A stretch of DNA of 64,000 nt from Phapecoctavirus DIJ07P1. Both the position numbers and the translations under genes were made by a program. The notes under the pieces were generated by a model, which saw only the letters and a list, made by a program, of their open reading frames with translations, ran no database searches and was not told where the DNA came from. The stretch lies in the sequence record OZ035743.1. The stretch is one strand, 5' to 3'. Below, piece after piece: positions 3,969 through 54,495 of the stretch. Every line of letters starts with the position of its first letter. The stretch's first letter is position 1.

Positions 3969-4856
3969 TCAGAACGGAATATCATCGTCGAAGTCCATTG
4001 GAGGTTCTTCTTGATTACTTGGAGTTGGTTCTGGTTGTGGTTCAGGTTTCTTAACTTCTTTCTTCTCTTCTTTCTTAGGCTGTTCTGCGGAACCACGAAT
4101 GGCAGCAGCAACTTTATCAGACAGAGCCAGAACTTTACGAGCAGAGTCGATCAGATCTTCTACAGATACAGTCTTAATGGTATGGTCTTTACAAGCATTG
4201 AGGATAGCGTGACCAACAGATGCCCCAAGATCATAATCATTAATATCAACACCACGAGATTCAGCAATTTCCGATTTCAGTGTGACAGTTGCAGATTGAA
4301 CAACCCCAGCGATATCGAAAGCATCGCCTTTAACACCATTACGAATCAGTTCCAGTGCACCATTTACTGCGTGACCAGTTTCCAGACCTACAGTATCACG
4401 TTTTTTATAGGACTGCTTAGGAGCAGCATCGTTGGAACCTTTATTACCAGAAGATTTGTTAGACTTCTGAACACCATCGGTAGACAATACTGTAATACGA
4501 GATTTTTTAGTATTGTAGTAAGTTTTACCGCCTTTATTATCAACGCGATCAATATCAATACTTACTTCTACACCTTTTTCAATAGTGATCCAATTATCAC
4601 CTTCTTTGACTTGCAGGTTTTCATAACCTTCTTTCAGTTCAATGTCACCAAGAGAAATCCAAACACCTTTCTCATCTGGTTTAGCACCTTTCTCTTTCAG
4701 AACAAGAGAGGCTCGGTGAGTTGAAACAATCGTTTTTCCTTCCCAATGAAAAGTTTTAGGTTCAGCGAATTTATCCAGTTTAACGTAGTCTACGATACCA
4801 GTTGCATAAGTTACGGTTTTGCCTTTACGATCAGTTTCAGTATTAATTACGGACAT
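3969..4856 (-). CDS. ssb: Single-stranded DNA-binding protein
   Basis: 295 aa; C-terminus PMDFDDDIPF matches the acidic SSB tail (DDDIPF); Gly/Lys-rich linker before tail. Confidence 0.75.
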   Translation of the reverse strand: MSVINTETDRKGKTVTYATGIVDYVKLDKFAEPKTFHWEGKTIVSTHRASLVLKEKGAKPDEKGVWISLGDIELKEGYENLQVKEGDNWITIEKGVEVSIDIDRVDNKGGKTYYNTKKSRITVLSTDGVQKSNKSSGNKGSNDAAPKQSYKKRDTVGLETGHAVNGALELIRNGVKGDAFDIAGVVQSATVTLKSEIAESRGVDINDYDLGASVGHAILNACKDHTIKTVSVEDLIDSARKVLALSDKVAAAIRGSAEQPKKEEKKEVKKPEPQPEPTPSNQEEPPMDFDDDIPF

Positions 4857-4872
4857 TATTATCTCCTCTACA

Positions 4873-5265
4873 TTACATTAATTTTGCACAGAAAGAGCGG
4901 AGTCTTTCCATATCATCTTGCTCTAACAGGTATTTACCTTTACCTATTCCAACTCCAATTTCACCATTAGGAAAATGAACTATTTGCACTGGGAAACCTC
5001 CGAGTTTAATTGTGGCAGCTTTGCCTTCTTCGTCTATAACGTTTCGGATTGTATCTTGCAGTGAAATGAATTCTTTGTTTGTAACAGTGGTTTCAATTAT
5101 TTCAGATGTTTCGACACGAGCAGTTAGCTTCTTGTTTCCACCTTGAATAACCAAAATTTGAAAATAAAAAGAGTTGTCAAGACCTACAACATTTTTCTCA
5201 ACTAGTGTCAAACTGGTGTAGTTTCCATAAACAGTTTCAACAGCTATCTTAGAACGTTCAGTCAT
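4873..5265 (-). CDS. Hypothetical protein
   Basis: 130-aa ORF in compact minus-strand operon; no motif recognised. Confidence 0.55.
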   Translation of the reverse strand: MTERSKIAVETVYGNYTSLTLVEKNVVGLDNSFYFQILVIQGGNKKLTARVETSEIIETTVTNKEFISLQDTIRNVIDEEGKAATIKLGGFPVQIVHFPNGEIGVGIGKGKYLLEQDDMERLRSFCAKLM

Positions 5266-5310: not shown

Positions 5311-5904
5311 TTACCAAGGAATATCATCTTCTTCCAATCTGGTATCTACTTGAGGTGGACGTGGAACCTTAACCTCTTTCACAAAACGAAGATATGGGAA
5401 ACGTGTAGCAATTTTAATAACGTGTTTGGCATCTTCTCTAACATCTTTGTGCAAGAAGCAGATCCCTGTTTCCAAAGTTGTTTCAAAATCTTTAGAGTAA
5501 TAACAATCCTTCCCATCAAATGCAGCCTGGCAGATGGACAGATCAAACTCATTTAGAAAGGTTGTCATTACGCTTGGTTCCATAATCATAAGGTTGCAAA
5601 GCTGACCATCACGTTCAAACTCAAAAACGTGTTTAAGACCAGTAACACCCTCGTAGTTATCCGAAGCTTCTTTGTTTCCTAATTTACGAACATTAGTTCC
5701 CATCAAAGCAGATGCAATCAATTCTTGTATTTGCTCTTCTGATCGATGTGCAGGAAGAGACGTGTAAAAATCCAGATCACGTCCAGCAATATCAAGAATA
5801 CGCCAATCACGAACAGCGCCGCCAGCCAAGACAGAATTAGGATCAGCAATCTTTAATACGGTAAGAATTTCTTTGGCAATATTGATTTGTTTTGATTTAG
5901 TCAT
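5311..5904 (-). CDS. Pol-beta-type nucleotidyltransferase (CCA-adding-enzyme head-domain-like)
   Basis: 197 aa; LAGGAVRDW...DLD matches the GGxVRD plus DxD signature of tRNA nucleotidyltransferase head domains. Confidence 0.55.
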   Translation of the reverse strand: MTKSKQINIAKEILTVLKIADPNSVLAGGAVRDWRILDIAGRDLDFYTSLPAHRSEEQIQELIASALMGTNVRKLGNKEASDNYEGVTGLKHVFEFERDGQLCNLMIMEPSVMTTFLNEFDLSICQAAFDGKDCYYSKDFETTLETGICFLHKDVREDAKHVIKIATRFPYLRFVKEVKVPRPPQVDTRLEEDDIPW

Positions 5905-42746: not shown

Positions 42747-44207
42747 GTGCCAAAAATAGTCACTTGGGAACAATATAAAACAGATATAAAACAAGCTTAT
42801 CAAGGTAAGTCTTGGACTGTTGTAGATTATATTGAGCCGTGGAACGGCAATAAAACTAAACTTAGATGCATCTGTGCTCTGCATGGAGAATGGAAAACAA
42901 CAAGCATAAATACCGCTAAACTAGGGAGGGGTTGTCCAGAATGCGGTAGGGAGATTATAAGTAAAGCAGTATCTATAAACAAATCAAAAACCTGGGAGCA
43001 ATATAAAGAAGAAGTGCAAACCACTTACAATCAGGCAGGTAAGTTTTGGACTGTTACAGGATGGCACGGAGAATGGAAAGGATGGAATACTAAACTGGTT
43101 TGTTGTTGTGCTTTACATGGGGAGTGGAGGTCTACTTCTATATCTTCTGCGAAAAACGGGAGTGGATGCAGGAAGTGTATGGGAGAAGCAAACAGAGAAA
43201 GAACATCGATTGCATGGGAGAAACATAAAGAAGAAGTAGAAGAAGCTTATAAAGAAAAACCCTGGATTGTTAGAGGCTATGTGGAACCGTGGAACGGTTC
43301 CCGCACTAAGTTGATTTGTGAGTGTAAGGTTCATGGTCAATGGTGCACTACCACTGTAAACAGTGCTAAACAAGGGACTGGATGCTACAGTTGTCAAAGA
43401 GAAATGACGAAACAAAGGAATACAATGGAGGATAAACAACATGTTGAAGATTTTATAAAAGCTTGTCCTGATAATGTAGAGCGTAAATATTATCGTAGCG
43501 ATAGAGTAGATAGATTAGGTCGTCAGGTTTACTGGATTGTAGAATGTCCTATATGTGCAGAGGATGATTATTGTAAAGAAGGCTTATGCGATAATAAATT
43601 TGAGATGAAGATGAGTCATTTGAAAAGGGGTGGCCTTCCTTGCCGTTGTTCTAAATATTATCATTACACTCCTGAACAATGGGCCTACCGTATGACCAAA
43701 GCTTGCCAGGAACGAGGGGATCAATTTATAGGATTCATTGATAAGGTAAGCAATAACAGCAAGTTTAAATATCTATGTAGGGAGCATGGAGAGCAAACGA
43801 TCACACCTACCGATTATCTCAATGGGAAAGGTTGTCCAGGCTGTAAGAACAGAAATATGCAAGAATTTTACATCAATATTATTCTTGATGAGTACGGAGA
43901 AGACACGGGAGCTTACAAGTTGGGGATTGCAAAGGACAGTGATATCAGGATCAAAGGGCAGAATGCAAACAACAATTACTCTATGCGCCGTATAGCATTG
44001 TTCGATCTGCCGTCCTACCAAGCTTGCAGGGCGTTAGAGAGTAAGCTAAAGTCTAAGACTGATCAGATTCTACCGTCTATTGGCTGTGTAGAACGCTTGC
44101 ACATGAAAGATGGTCATAGTGAAACCTTCCTGCGCGAGGATTTGGCTATCGTCTTAAGTGCTATCAACCAAGCAGGTGGAATAATGAGAGAGGAGGAAAC
44201 ATGTTAG
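42747..44207 (+). CDS. Zinc-ribbon tandem-repeat protein with C-terminal GIY-YIG-like region
   Basis: 486 aa; four tandem ~75-aa repeats (W..YK...W.V..Y.EPWNG..TKL.C.C..HGEW.TTS.N.AK.G.GC..C); C-terminal EFYINIIL...GAYKLGIA. Confidence 0.7.
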   Translation: MPKIVTWEQYKTDIKQAYQGKSWTVVDYIEPWNGNKTKLRCICALHGEWKTTSINTAKLGRGCPECGREIISKAVSINKSKTWEQYKEEVQTTYNQAGKFWTVTGWHGEWKGWNTKLVCCCALHGEWRSTSISSAKNGSGCRKCMGEANRERTSIAWEKHKEEVEEAYKEKPWIVRGYVEPWNGSRTKLICECKVHGQWCTTTVNSAKQGTGCYSCQREMTKQRNTMEDKQHVEDFIKACPDNVERKYYRSDRVDRLGRQVYWIVECPICAEDDYCKEGLCDNKFEMKMSHLKRGGLPCRCSKYYHYTPEQWAYRMTKACQERGDQFIGFIDKVSNNSKFKYLCREHGEQTITPTDYLNGKGCPGCKNRNMQEFYINIILDEYGEDTGAYKLGIAKDSDIRIKGQNANNNYSMRRIALFDLPSYQACRALESKLKSKTDQILPSIGCVERLHMKDGHSETFLREDLAIVLSAINQAGGIMREEETC

Positions 44208-44566
44208 TTGACGTTCAAATTATGCGCAACGAAAGAATGGACTTCTTTGAAGCAGTAGAGAAACATCTGATCAGATGGGACTATGAATTTGTTCCTGCTG
44301 GATGTGGACCAGTAGAGCATTTAGCGGAAGACGACGATGTATACATGATCATTCGTCAAGTGTACCAGACAGACCAGTGTGAAGAAACTCCCGAACTGAT
44401 TTTGTTTGAGTGTAAAGATCTTGCAAAATATTTTGACTATGGCGGAAAAGAGGGTCATAATCTCTCCAGATACAATAAACGTCTACTTATCTTAGACTAC
44501 ATGCGGAACAACAAACACAAACTCATCGACGCAGACGCAGTTTATGGCTACTGGTGGATGGACTAA
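44201..44566 (+). CDS. Hypothetical protein
   Basis: 121-aa ORF. Confidence 0.55.
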   Translation: MLVDVQIMRNERMDFFEAVEKHLIRWDYEFVPAGCGPVEHLAEDDDVYMIIRQVYQTDQCEETPELILFECKDLAKYFDYGGKEGHNLSRYNKRLLILDYMRNNKHKLIDADAVYGYWWMD

Positions 44567-44579
44567 CAAAGGAGAAACT

Positions 44580-44759
44580 ATGGCACGTTTAGCAGATCAT
44601 GAAATCTTTAAACCTATTCTGAACCACTATGATGAACTTAAAGCAGTGTTGGATTGTTATAGAGAGGATGAAGAACGTTTGGAAGTCAATCTTAAGATAG
44701 TTCTGATGAAAGCTTTTCAAGACGGGCAAGCTAAAGTTTTAGAAGGCATGAAAAAATGA
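44580..44759 (+). CDS. Hypothetical small protein
   Basis: Start set at Met after GGAGAAA RBS. Confidence 0.45.
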   Translation: MARLADHEIFKPILNHYDELKAVLDCYREDEERLEVNLKIVLMKAFQDGQAKVLEGMKK

Positions 44760-45298
44760 GAATAACTGATGAATATGTATTCTTCTTTTCACATAAAGAT
44801 GTGTTTAGTAATTGGTATATTGCACCCTTTACAGAAACTGAACCAGGTTACAATGAGACTTTCTGTTGTGTTGAGCAATATATGATGTGGCGTAAGGCTT
44901 TGCTGTTCAAGGATCATGCGATTGCAGCAGCTATCCTTGATCACTCAACTATACGTGACAACGAGAGGAAACAAGCATACTACAAACGTATGGGTCGAGC
45001 GGTATCTGGTTTTAATAATGATATGTGGGAAGAGAACCGTGAGCGTATTGTTATGCGAGGCTTATGCTTGAAATATGTACAGAATCCAGATTTGTATGCA
45101 GACTTACACCTTTACCAATACAAAACGTTTGTTGAAGCAAGTCCTTACGATAAGGTTTACGGTATTGGAATGGGAATGTATGAACCAGGGGTGCTAAACC
45201 CTGCTACCTGGAAAGGGCAGAATCTTTTAGGCAAATATCATAATAAACTGATCGAAATACTTTTCCCAGACAAAATACCGCAAAGACGATATTTGTGA
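44756..45298 (+). CDS. NADAR-domain (YbiA-like, DUF1768) protein
   Basis: 180 aa; VFFFSHKDVFSNWY...CCVEQYMMWRKALLF parallels E. coli YbiA INFYS...FSNF...SEHYFQAQKF. Confidence 0.65.
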   Translation: MRITDEYVFFFSHKDVFSNWYIAPFTETEPGYNETFCCVEQYMMWRKALLFKDHAIAAAILDHSTIRDNERKQAYYKRMGRAVSGFNNDMWEENRERIVMRGLCLKYVQNPDLYADLHLYQYKTFVEASPYDKVYGIGMGMYEPGVLNPATWKGQNLLGKYHNKLIEILFPDKIPQRRYL

Positions 45299-45353
45299 TA
45301 TTTTAACTTTTTTCATTTTTAGAACAAAGGTGTCACTTTGTAGCACAGAAATA

Positions 45354-45380
45354 AGGCTCCTACAGCACCGTAGAGAGCCT
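45354..45380 (+). terminator. Rho-independent terminator
   Basis: aggctc-ctacagcaccgtagag-agcct hairpin followed by gttattttgt. Confidence 0.65.
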
Positions 45381-45540
45381 GTTATTTTGTCCTATACAAA
45401 CCCTTGTCTTTTTCAGTTTGCATCACTAGGATTCGATCTGAGTGGGTTCCTGAAGGTTTACCAATAAGATTAAAGGTTATATCAAATTCCCACTATCTTT
45501 TATCTCAAAAATCCCTCAAATTATTTAAACTTTTTAAGAA

Positions 45541-45717
45541 TTTACAAAAATGAAAGTACAAAAGCAAAATTTAAAGTTTAGGAAAATTATCTTAAAATGT
45601 TAGATACAAAACAAAACTCAAAAGTCAAGGAAAATTTTAAAAATTTTGCGCGCCCACAGTATTTAAAGTTTTTTTGCTTTTACAAAAATGAAAGTACAAA
45701 AGCAAAATTTAAAGTTT
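45541..45717. repeat. 40-bp direct repeat pair in AT-rich intergenic region
   Basis: tttacaaaaatgaaagtacaaaagcaaaatttaaagttta at 45541..45580 and 45678..45717. Confidence 0.8.
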
Positions 45718-45740
45718 ACAAAAATTTTTATGCAGGTGAA

Positions 45741-45846
45741 AATGAGAAGAGTTCTCATATGGAAATGCAAATGATAATGATTCGCATTTAAGTTTATAAA
45801 TGAGATTGATTCTTATTTAATAAGGTAAATGACAATCATTCTCATT
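45741..45846. promoter_or_regulatory. Four tandem ~19-bp palindromes resembling the Fur box
   Basis: aatgagaagagttctcat; aatgataatgattcgcatt; aatgagattgattcttatt; aatgacaatcattctcatt at ~28-bp spacing; last copy matches GATAATGATAATCATTATC at 14/16 aligned positions. Confidence 0.45.
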
Positions 45847-46106
45847 TAGAGAATGACGCGCAGGGGCGGTGTTTGTCTCGCGCTCCCGTGTCCCCTCGCC
45901 ATGTAATAAGAATAACAGATCCAGCCAGGAAAGCAAGCGATTATTTTATCTTTACATTTCTTTACAAATATATAGCACCCAGCCTACCGGCGATCAACCT
46001 TCCAACCAGTGCCCCCTGGTATGTTAGCCCCGCCTTTACGCCGTGGGGTGGCGCTTCCTCTTCTGTATGTAAAACAGTATAAGCCCGATCCCTGGGCTTG
46101 TCAAGA

Positions 46107-46373
46107 TTATTTTTTGTTTTCTTGCCAGGATAGGACACCTAACCAAAAATACATATCGCCCCGCGCCCCTGGTGGTATCTTGCTTTCCCCGCCGCCACTG
46201 CAAGCCCATAGATAACCATTTGCGAACGTATCAAAATGATCTATCTCTTCCACCTTATGATCGCCCAGGTTGAGAACGGTTTCAACCTTTAAGCCCGTTG
46301 CGCTTGCTACCTGGTGCACCGTGCCGCCTTGCCAGCCCAATGAGTGCATAAGGTGTAATGTAGTATTTGTCAT
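46107..46373 (-). CDS. Hypothetical protein in GC-rich island
   Basis: 88-aa ORF; competing ORFs on both strands; weak RBS. Confidence 0.35.
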   Translation of the reverse strand: MTNTTLHLMHSLGWQGGTVHQVASATGLKVETVLNLGDHKVEEIDHFDTFANGYLWACSGGGESKIPPGARGDMYFWLGVLSWQENKK

Positions 46374-46482
46374 GATATCGCCCTTTCTTTGTTGTGCGCC
46401 CTGGTTGGCGCGGTAGAAAGATAATAGCCCTTTTCTTTATATATAGCAAGCAAAAAGAAAATAAAAAAGATTGAAAAATGGT

Positions 46483-46540
46483 TGACGTTAACCAGGCGGC
46501 GGCGTAGTATTCATCTTGTAGGGCGGCAATGGTGCCGCTC
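46483..46540 (+). promoter_or_regulatory. Promoter-leader cassette 1
   Basis: TTGACG-spacer-TAGTAT then tagGGCGGCAATGGTGCCGCtc leader hairpin. Confidence 0.6.
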
Positions 46541-46559
46541 ACTATTTGGAGTTAAGATC

Positions 46560-46757
46560 ATGGCAACATTGCACATTGTGGCGAAAGCTGGACAAATCAA
46601 CGTAGTGGTAAACGGTTTTACTGAGTTCAGTCACCCCCAGGATGATCATGAAACGGTTTTATCTTTCATTGATTCCCTGTTAGAAATGGGAGTCATTACA
46701 GAAGACCAGCACGCTACAAAATGCAAGCGCGTTAATCAAATTGCAGGAATAGAATAA
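46560..46757 (+). CDS. Hypothetical small protein
   Basis: Start set at MATLHIVAK after GGAG RBS. Confidence 0.55.
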   Translation: MATLHIVAKAGQINVVVNGFTEFSHPQDDHETVLSFIDSLLEMGVITEDQHATKCKRVNQIAGIE

Positions 46758-48730: not shown

Positions 48731-48910
48731 ATGGCTATCATTGCAAAAACTGAGATTATAGGTTTAGATTCGATCCTCCTGGCTTATGAGGAAACTTTAA
48801 AAATGTATGTAGTGACCTATGGTGATTATGTGCGTGAATACGAATACATTGATCTTGCTTTCGAATGTTACATTCGCCAGGTCAATAAAGCCTATAATGA
48901 TTATCGTTAA
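48731..48910 (+). CDS. Hypothetical small protein (59 aa, below ORF-track cutoff)
   Basis: MAIIAKTEIIGLDSILLAYEETLKMYVVTYGDYVREYEYIDLAFECYIRQVNKAYNDYR read manually. Confidence 0.5.
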   Translation: MAIIAKTEIIGLDSILLAYEETLKMYVVTYGDYVREYEYIDLAFECYIRQVNKAYNDYR

Positions 48911-48929
48911 AAGTTTTAGTCTTATACTA

Positions 48930-52994: not shown

Positions 52995-54495
52995 GCCCGA
53001 ACAATGTTGATAGCTTTCGCCTATGAAAAACCGACACAGAACAAAACTGAATAAATCGCGGTATCGAGCTAATCAACCAGCAAACGAATAACCATACCTC
53101 CCAGGGTTACAGGCTGTTAGAGAGCCATTTAGAGCGGTTAAAATCGATCAACAACCAACAACAAACCATCAAAAACACCCTTTTACCTCCTTTCTAGTGC
53201 AATGATAACCATTATCATCTACCCATGATTATCTATGCAATATAAGCGCATAATTATAATGTTGATAATAGTTCGCAACAACTAACCAACAAACAACATA
53301 AAACAATAAGCAAACTAATCATAATCAAAGGAATAATAGCAAGATGATTGATAACGACAAACAATCAAACCATGATGAATACTAAGCAAGATAACGATAA
53401 CACGACAAAACAACCAACTAACGAACAATAACAAACGAAACCATTAAAATAATAACTATTAGCAAAATAGTGCATGAATGAAATCATTACAAAACGAATC
53501 ATTCACAGAGTCATCATTAGCACGCTATGCCGGACACATAGCGAGCTAATAATAAGCCAACTACACCCCAACAATCATAACCATCGGTGACGGTTATTTC
53601 TTGTTACTGCGTAGCTTGCAATAATTGCAAGCGTAATGACGCTTACACTTATTGCGCTGGCTTATTATTAGCATTATATGTAATTACCAAGATCATAACA
53701 TTAGCGCAATAACAATAGTCATTGTGATAATTACAAGATGAGATCATTAGCAAGATGAATAATTGCACGTAGCAACATGAGCGAATAGCGACAGGTTGCA
53801 TAGTGTGCACATAGTGTATAAACATACAAGAAAATAAAGGCTAATCTTTTGGGGGCGAATACTATCGCGTAGCGATATGTTGAGCACCTTCTCTTAAACG
53901 TAAATAAAATCAGAAAATTCTTGATTTATTTTGGCTTTTATGTTAATAAACGTTTAAATAATAATCATTCTCATATAAATAATAGTCTGCTTGTCATGAG
54001 CGGCATTAGTTGACATTGTTCCGTCATATGATGAAGTTGCCAAGCCATTGATAAATAAGTGTTTGTGTGATTTATAATCAGGTGGCCCACCTTGTCGCTA
54101 TGTTGGCATGAGCCTTGCATAAGTCATTGAATACGAATGATAATTATTCTCATTCGCATGATATTTGGGAATTGTCGCTGCGTGGACCTGACGGCCCGAA
54201 AATTCGCGTTAAGCACTTCTTACGTATGCGCCATGATTTTTGCCATATGATATTGATTCTATTAGATATTCTTGCCATTATTGCCATGAAACAGGGTGTG
54301 TCGAAATAATTGCTCCCCGTAGATATTTTGGGTTACTTTTTATACAAGAGTGGGGTGTCAAAAATAATCGGTATATATGGGATAATTGATAGGAATCCCC
54401 TATGATAATTCGATTGTAATTCCCTAAGATTGATCGTATGATGTTGGTGATTGATGATTGCCATGAAAGATGGCTAACGATGAGAGGAGATTGTC
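52995..54495. other. A/C-rich, strand-asymmetric non-coding region (~1.5 kb)
   Basis: No convincing ORF; plus strand dominated by A and C with recurring CAAGATGA / GATAACGA / ATCATTAGC words. Confidence 0.6.
53957..54157. promoter_or_regulatory. Fur-box-like palindromes (second locus)
   Basis: aataataatcattctcat (53957..53974) and cgaatgataattattctcattcg (54135..54157); same motif family as 45741..45846. Confidence 0.45.

Follow-up and report, generated by a model that had tools for sequence, protein, structure and literature searches.

An iteron-like direct-repeat array in a gene-free, AT-rich locus of a phAPEC8-like phage, a candidate replication-origin module

What might a long, perfect direct repeat be doing in phage DNA that carries no gene? 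The question is raised by the 40-mer TTTACAAAAATGAAAGTACAAAAGCAAAATTTAAAGTTTA, which is found exactly twice, both times on the plus strand, in the window (the whole 64-kb stretch of DNA analysed here, to which all positions refer unless another sequence is named). The two copies lie at 45541-45580 and 45679-45718. No such match was obtained in 100 dinucleotide-preserving shuffles, even with three mismatches allowed, which confirms the two-copy perfect repeat reported in the first-pass annotation. Its coordinates required a small correction: the second copy ends at 45718, one base beyond the 45717 given there, and the copies are 138 bp apart from start to start (not 137 bp), with 98 bp between them.

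The window comes from a Phapecoctavirus phage (phAPEC8-like, Stephanstirmvirinae). About 125 phage records match the region, and the best matches are Phapecoctavirus coliphages of ~150 kb, with identities of up to 99.5%. The nearest relative, vB_EcoM_3A1_SA_NWU (3A1), was compared with the window base by base over 44200-46740, and its remainder was joined to the 64-kb window to give a composite genome of 144.6 kb. Within-genus variability was counted among four relatives (phAPEC8, ASO2A, tuntematon, and 3A1). Several matching records, among them MG065650.1, MG065656.1, and OP562383.1, are labelled as Campylobacter, Acinetobacter, or Pseudomonas phages, are ~96% identical to the coliphage locus, and are probably mislabelled or contaminant genomes. 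A tRNA search of the window gave no hit, and Rfam, at both gathering and permissive thresholds, returned nothing meaningful.

The repeat is placed in a unique control locus of ~800 bp, which careful annotations leave empty. Its left neighbor is a NADAR-domain gene (44756-45298), whose terminator, a hairpin with a T-run on the plus strand (45354-45389), forms the left boundary of the gene-free region; the hairpin itself (~45354-45380) has a fold z-score of -4.0 and is annotated as a terminator in phAPEC8 and ASO2A. On the right, a minus-strand gene of 88 codons (46107-46373) closes the gap. The repeat thus has the AT-rich intergenic setting originally described for it, between this terminator and a cluster of palindromes (45740-45848), and the DNA around it has the lowest GC content of the composite genome. 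An open reading frame of 64 codons (45597-45791, plus strand) lies across the repeat. It begins with ATG and is called in a few records, and it could in principle encode a real 64-aa protein in which the repeat would be a repeated peptide, a reading that is hardly credible. The frame is shifted by a 2-nt deletion in phAPEC8 and ASO2A, it stops after 23 codons in phiWec190, and no counterpart is found in Justusliebigvirus, Citrobacter phage Tr1, or Klebsiella phage 05F01. The sole Pfam match is below the cut-off of its own family and is ascribed to chance. The frame had already been suspected of being spurious, with which these data agree; the region is non-coding, and the ORFs called across it in several records should be removed from the annotation.

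The perfect identity of the two copies is a side issue with respect to the longer array described below. Between the window and 3A1, differences over 44200-46740 are found only at 45103 and in one cluster in copy 1 (45550, 45558, 45559, and 45564), and at all four clustered positions copy 1 has taken on the base of copy 2. In none of 70 related records is copy 1 matched at 99% identity or more: copy 1 differs from copy 2 in all of them, and the closest relatives have four mismatches each over copy 1, so the ancestral pair would have been identical at 36 of 40 positions. Copy 2 is unchanged in all relatives examined, which marks it as the donor. Since the four bases are nearly the sole differences from the closest relative over 2.5 kb, the perfection appears to be recent and private, and points either to gene conversion, in which copy 2 replaced a short tract of copy 1, or to an artefact of assembly or polishing, in which reads of copy 2 corrected copy 1. 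The artefact, which would concern the perfection alone and not the array, is possible though somewhat doubtful. It is favored by the confinement of four private differences to 15 bp, all in the direction of copy 2, in DNA that matches the closest relative at all but one other site, and by a state seen in none of the 70 other records. On the other side, short-tract conversion between repeats that are ~85% identical and 138 bp apart is biologically plausible, and one of the four changes is also present in the MirsaeidiM_Esher1 record.

The similarity around the 40-mers reaches 72 nt (45517-45588 versus 45655-45726, 88% identical), and a partial third copy is found at 45605-45636. Judged from these alignments, the 40-mers are the cores of ~72-nt units in an iteron-like array of three units of ~70 bp, which spans 210 bp (45517-45726) and is composed, in Phapecoctavirus, of unit 1, a degenerate middle unit, and unit 3, all on the plus strand. 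Unit 1 (45517-45588) contains box A, TTTAAACTTT, at 45524-45533 and box B, TTTAAAGTTT, at 45570-45579, and unit 3 (45655-45726) has box A at 45662-45671 and box B at 45708-45717; in both cases the two boxes are 46 bp apart. The degenerate middle unit (45586-45654) holds the partial copy and a weak box, TCAAAAGTCA, at 45618-45627, which also falls on the ~46-bp lattice. The consensus of box A is TATTTAAAGTTTTT and that of box B is AAAAnCAAAATnTAAAGTTT, and both share the TTTAAAGTTT core. With the middle unit degenerate and units 1 and 3 kept, the distance of 138 bp between the 40-mers corresponds to 2 x 69 bp, and the boxes form a lattice of five (45524, 45570, 45618, 45662, and 45708, the third being the weak one) with spacings of 46, 48, 44, and 46 bp. 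The pair of binding sites suggested in the first-pass annotation was therefore the right kind of idea and too small, as there are five boxes in three units. The array has the three or more regularly spaced direct repeats of the same orientation by which iteron origins are recognized.

The three-unit array is kept across the genera of Stephanstirmvirinae. Justusliebigvirus and Tr1 contain three full units, 67-76 bp apart, and 05F01 contains two; the middle position is occupied by a full unit in other genera, whereas it is degenerate in Phapecoctavirus. Box A is nearly invariant in 12 of the 14 units from five lineages. In Justusliebigvirus box B has diverged but is found at the same offset. The distance between box A and box B is exactly 46 bp in the phAPEC8-type, the phiWec190-type (70% identical overall), and Tr1, although the sequence between the boxes differs among them. 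The last unit carries a signature of its own, CCCAGnTTATTTAAAGTTTTTTTGC, in every genus, so that the units are orthologous by position and the array is older than these genera. Units within one genome are 62-80% identical, with the exception of the converted pair of the window (85%), and this is similar to the identity of same-position units across genomes, which indicates that homogenization is not the rule.

The array is also strongly constrained within the genus. Among the four relatives it shows 1.0 variable column per 100 nt, in fact two columns, both at its final two bases, and is 10-16 times less variable than its flanks: the corresponding values are 10.2 for the adjacent spacer, 14.8 for the palindromes, 10.0 from the GC block to the CpxR-like box, 10.9 for the conserved hairpin block, and 16.2 for the NADAR gene. 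As far as the aligned sequences tell, the constraint is sequence-specific and not a matter of mere AT-richness. Variable copy number among related phages, proposed originally as a check, is not observed, as the locus is one colinear piece of 791-802 nt in all 40 relatives listed. A neutral scar of duplication or recombination without a function, the other explanation offered at the outset, would fit a direct repeat in AT-rich non-coding DNA, and the private homogenization shows that the copies are able to recombine. Low variability together with a single colinear match and constant copy number rules it out, and the conservation across genera, the constant box spacing, and the position-specific signatures of the units speak against it as well; with an array that predates the split of the genera and a perfection that alone is recent, a scar is most improbable. 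A CRISPR-like mini-array was also rejected, as the units are only 62-80% identical (bar the converted pair), the DNA between the boxes is invariant within the genus, and no Rfam match is found.

In the 144.6-kb composite genome, pairs of boxes 46 bp apart are present at the array locus only. The 11-mer ATTTAAAGTTT has three exact copies and one copy with a single mismatch at the locus, and elsewhere in the window only scattered, isolated copies with one mismatch. This confinement led us to reject a general promoter or operator motif. A search of IMG/VR with the pattern TATTTAAAGTTTTT-N35-37-TAAAGTTT returned one known relative and chance matches in phages of 27-30% GC. Mimicry of a host site was rejected, as E. 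coli genomes contain no match to the array, plasmids contain none worth noting, and the palindromes have no informative match. The other AT-rich divergent intergenic regions of the genome contain no such repeat array.

The GC content of the array is the lowest of the composite genome at 100, 200, and 300 bp (17, 21, and 23%, respectively, against a mean of 39%), and by nearest-neighbor energy the array contains the least stable 100-bp stretch of the 64-kb window. It thereby offers the kind of AT-rich, easily melted DNA expected of the unwinding element of an iteron origin. The single-strand fold of the array is not significant (z = +0.55), which indicates that it acts as duplex DNA; a structured RNA or single-stranded DNA in the array was rejected on this ground. 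Between 45300 and 46500, neither a DnaA box (TTWTNCACA, or a version with one mismatch) nor the IHF consensus WATCAANNNNTTR is found.

The array is embedded among several conserved elements. On its left, two TTATCTCAAA-like motifs are located on the plus strand at 45477 and 45500 (45477-45509), and a third is found at 45587; in Vequintavirinae, three instances of the same motif or a close variant precede the unrelated repeat array. On its right are the four palindromes (45740-45758, 45763-45789, 45797-45819, and 45826-45848), of the form AATGAGAATCATTCTCATT, which resemble the Fur box, GATAATGATAATCATTATC. In the window, 29 sites match this box at 14 or more of 19 positions, against 6 expected. 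Further Fur-like palindromes are found at 48893-48911, 53198-53222, 53954-53978, and 54133-54158, and, judging by how a close relative is annotated, an iron-dependent class Ia ribonucleotide reductase is encoded by the phage. Homologs of the palindromes occur in both rV5-like and T5-like phages. The T5-like phage saus47N has the family in its left terminal repeat, at 1341-1545 and 1870-1895 of the extracted locus (L013), where a 27-mer is identical to window 45763-45789.

Next to the palindromes is a GC-rich block (45855-45900), conserved across Stephanstirmvirinae and Vequintavirinae. It is followed, on the minus strand at 45951-45965, by GTAAAGAAATGTAAA, an exact match to the CpxR consensus, GTAAA-N5-GTAAA, and the only one in the composite genome. 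This CpxR-like box is kept in nearly all aligned loci of the two subfamilies. A short way downstream of it comes a second leftward promoter (TTGCAA-17-TATATT), weak here and strong in Vequintavirinae. Farther to the right, a nearly invariant, hairpin-forming block of ~100 nt (45975-46072, minus strand), conserved across the two subfamilies, is found downstream of P1(-), a predicted leftward promoter of the sigma-70 type (TTGACA-17-TATACT, 46076-46104, minus strand), which points through the palindromes to the array. The hairpin block is non-coding, since close relatives differ by indels of 1-2 nt in its loops. Covariation is minimal, with one compensatory pair on the minus strand beside an invariant G-U pair, too little to demonstrate an RNA structure; the block may act either as a DNA site or as a structured RNA (a leader or a primer).

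P1(-) is a consensus match with 9-12 of 12 positions. Each of the 22 loci compared, from two subfamilies, has it at the corresponding site, and its spacer contains a GC hairpin. No ORF is found downstream of it for ~730 nt. A promoter directed into AT-rich DNA, as at transcription-primed origins, is therefore present as a consensus match. Tandem sigma-70 promoters inside the units were considered and rejected, as the best matches (9/12) are not kept in relatives; a sigma-70-like match abutting the palindromes (45715-45743) is destroyed by the 2-nt deletion in phAPEC8 and ASO2A. The "PHIRE promoters" of phAPEC8 correspond to a repeated GC hairpin, GTAGGGCGGCAATGGTGCCGCTC, found in the window at ~46513-46540 and in locus L001 at 4309-4328, 4948-4967, and 5837-5856. 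It immediately follows the -10 element of early sigma-70 promoters, so that a stem-loop at the 5' end of early transcripts is more probable than a promoter.

With respect to the physical genome, the locus marks where the early region, a set of small genes with sigma-70 promoters, begins on the left. A direct terminal repeat of 328 bp has been reported for phage Schickermooser (PMC6563267). It maps to window 53883-54211, and the Schickermooser and 3A1 records both begin at window 53883, so the physical end of the genome lies within the window. About 1.5 kb of non-coding DNA flanks the segment 53883-54211, which contains two of the further Fur-like palindromes and at whose start is the 100-bp stretch ranking second in AT content. 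The array is 8.3 kb to the left of the terminal repeat, on account of which a physical terminus, packaging site, or terminal-repeat boundary was rejected. The right physical end is 8.5 kb (~6% of the genome) away from the array here; in Schickermooser the distance is 14.3 kb (9.5%). All genes in the interval are small early ones.

Several known systems resemble the locus in part. As in iteron origins (lambda ori, P1 oriR, and the pSC101/R6K type), repeats of the same orientation and fixed spacing adjoin or occupy the stretch of highest AT content, the genome has a single such site, and the sequence of the repeats varies with the lineage although their position does not. Unlike these origins, which have iterons of 17-22 bp in helical phase, the array consists of ~70-bp units, each with two boxes of 10-14 bp set 46 bp apart, and has no recognized initiator gene beside it and no DnaA or IHF sites. 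The T7 primary origin, T4 oriF/oriG, and ColE1 RNA II share with the locus a conserved promoter that points into an easily unwound AT-rich region, with a conserved, hairpin-forming, G-rich segment in between that here would be transcribed. The distance between promoter and array is 350-550 bp here, and a palindrome cluster is interposed.

Repeat Region 3 of T5 has been described as a candidate injection stop signal in the left terminal repeat, in which palindromes lie beside paired DnaA boxes, with no mention of Fur (Davison, bioRxiv 10.1101/866236). The two regions have in common a large untranslated stretch with direct repeats and the same palindrome family, one 27-mer being identical, and a location near an early-gene block, a few percent of the genome length from the physical end. 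The T5 region, however, marks the boundary of a 10-kb terminal repeat and contains, besides paired DnaA boxes, 22-nt DRD repeats that are unrelated in sequence, whereas here the terminal repeat is short (328 bp) and distant, and DnaA boxes are missing. Thus the array is not located in the untranslated end of a long terminal repeat, and paired DnaA boxes in inverted repeats are absent from it and present in the T5-like locus; BLAST matches to the left terminal repeats of T5-like phages cover the neighboring palindromes and not the direct repeats.

The closest counterpart is the locus of Vequintavirinae (rV5/CR9-like), which has the same architecture: three direct repeats 63-78 bp apart, Fur-like palindromes, the GC block, the CpxR-like box, the hairpin block, and P1(-). 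The 88-aa gene is not adjacent there. At the position of the array, the repeats have an unrelated sequence, GGGTCTCGATCG..TTTTC..ATCGTATT, which contains GATC; the GATC enrichment was set aside as a lead, being just 2-3 fold. Unrelated repeats at the same place between similar flanks are the pattern expected if cis sites co-diverge with a phage-encoded protein that binds them. Together with the specific and exactly spaced lattice, the constraint over 210 bp, the single-copy state, and the location in the most meltable DNA, this replacement of the repeats between subfamilies amid kept flanks is best explained by a cis-acting array that would be bound by a phage-specific protein.

Since the iteron-type and the transcription-activated origins are the closest functional models, we tentatively take a replication-origin module as the most likely function: the array may be the part to which an initiator binds and where the duplex unwinds, with P1(-), the Fur-like palindromes, and the CpxR-like box alongside. 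A phage-specific protein would recognize the boxes, and the array DNA, of 17-23% GC, would open. P1(-) would fire, and its leftward transcript would run through the structured block and the Fur-like palindromes into the array, helping or priming initiation as at T7 primary, T4, and ColE1-type origins, so that replication would start at the array. Several observations stand against this proposal. The adjacent 88-aa protein has a confident helical structure model with no significant match to DNA-binding folds, and the AAA+ ATPase encoded 3 kb upstream is generic. DnaA boxes and the IHF consensus are lacking, and the unit design differs from that of classical iterons, as noted above. A skew-based predictor would place the origin elsewhere, in a different divergent intergenic region (3A1 ~53.9 kb), where the cumulative GC skew has its minimum and the second most AT-rich region is found. 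In T5, moreover, the same palindromes lie in a region that has been argued not to be an origin.

The strong constraint fits any protein-binding array equally well, and the array may instead consist of operators or upstream sites for a phage regulator or architectural protein, controlling read-through from P1(-) or the timing of the early region, with no part in replication. Such a role in transcription is a possibility of lesser weight. The location at the left edge of the early region, in a locus packed with Fur-like palindromes, a CpxR consensus, and a conserved promoter, agrees with it, whereas the box motif is at no other promoter of the genome, no conserved sigma-70 promoter is found in or next to the array (the best match is 9/12, and that at 45715-45743 is lost in two relatives), and P1(-) has no gene downstream for 730 nt. 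A T5-like site of DNA entry, which would pause or anchor the incoming genome so that the terminal early-gene block enters first, is quite improbable. It draws on the homology of the adjoining palindromes to T5 Repeat Region 3 and on the distances of ~6 and 9.5% from the right end, comparable to the 7.9% of first-step transfer in T5; yet the locus neither lies within the terminal repeat nor borders it, the paired DnaA boxes forming the core of the T5 signal according to Davison are missing, the direct repeats have no sequence counterpart in T5, and two-step transfer in these phages is not reported in the literature that could be searched.

A wider reading, more speculative than the origin module and unlikely as it stands, would join some of these elements: the array could be the phage-specific half of an undescribed "sensor" locus shared by large virulent coliphages of the phAPEC8-like and rV5-like groups (T5-like phages have a related palindrome module). 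In such a locus, a leftward transcript gated by clustered host Fur sites and a CpxR site would trigger or license a unique cis function at the repeats, either origin firing or staged DNA entry. If this were true, phage replication or entry would be coupled to the iron and envelope-stress state of the host, or replicating phage DNA would titrate Fur.

In general, the repeat forms the core of a conserved cis element for which no earlier description was found. Iteron-like arrays in AT-rich control regions are a known kind of element, and the replication-origin module is the candidate function here. Literature searches found nothing published on the origin, repeats, or transcription of these phages or on the locus, and no account of a replication origin or other cis control site in either Stephanstirmvirinae or Vequintavirinae. 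Isolates of these phages are widespread, and their therapeutic use against E. coli, Salmonella, Klebsiella, and Cronobacter is under development; the locus offers a concrete, single-copy, strongly constrained candidate site. The more unusual leads are the neighbors of the array, namely the Fur-like sites common to the T5 region and the perfect CpxR consensus, which hint that these phages read or perturb the iron and envelope-stress regulators of their host.
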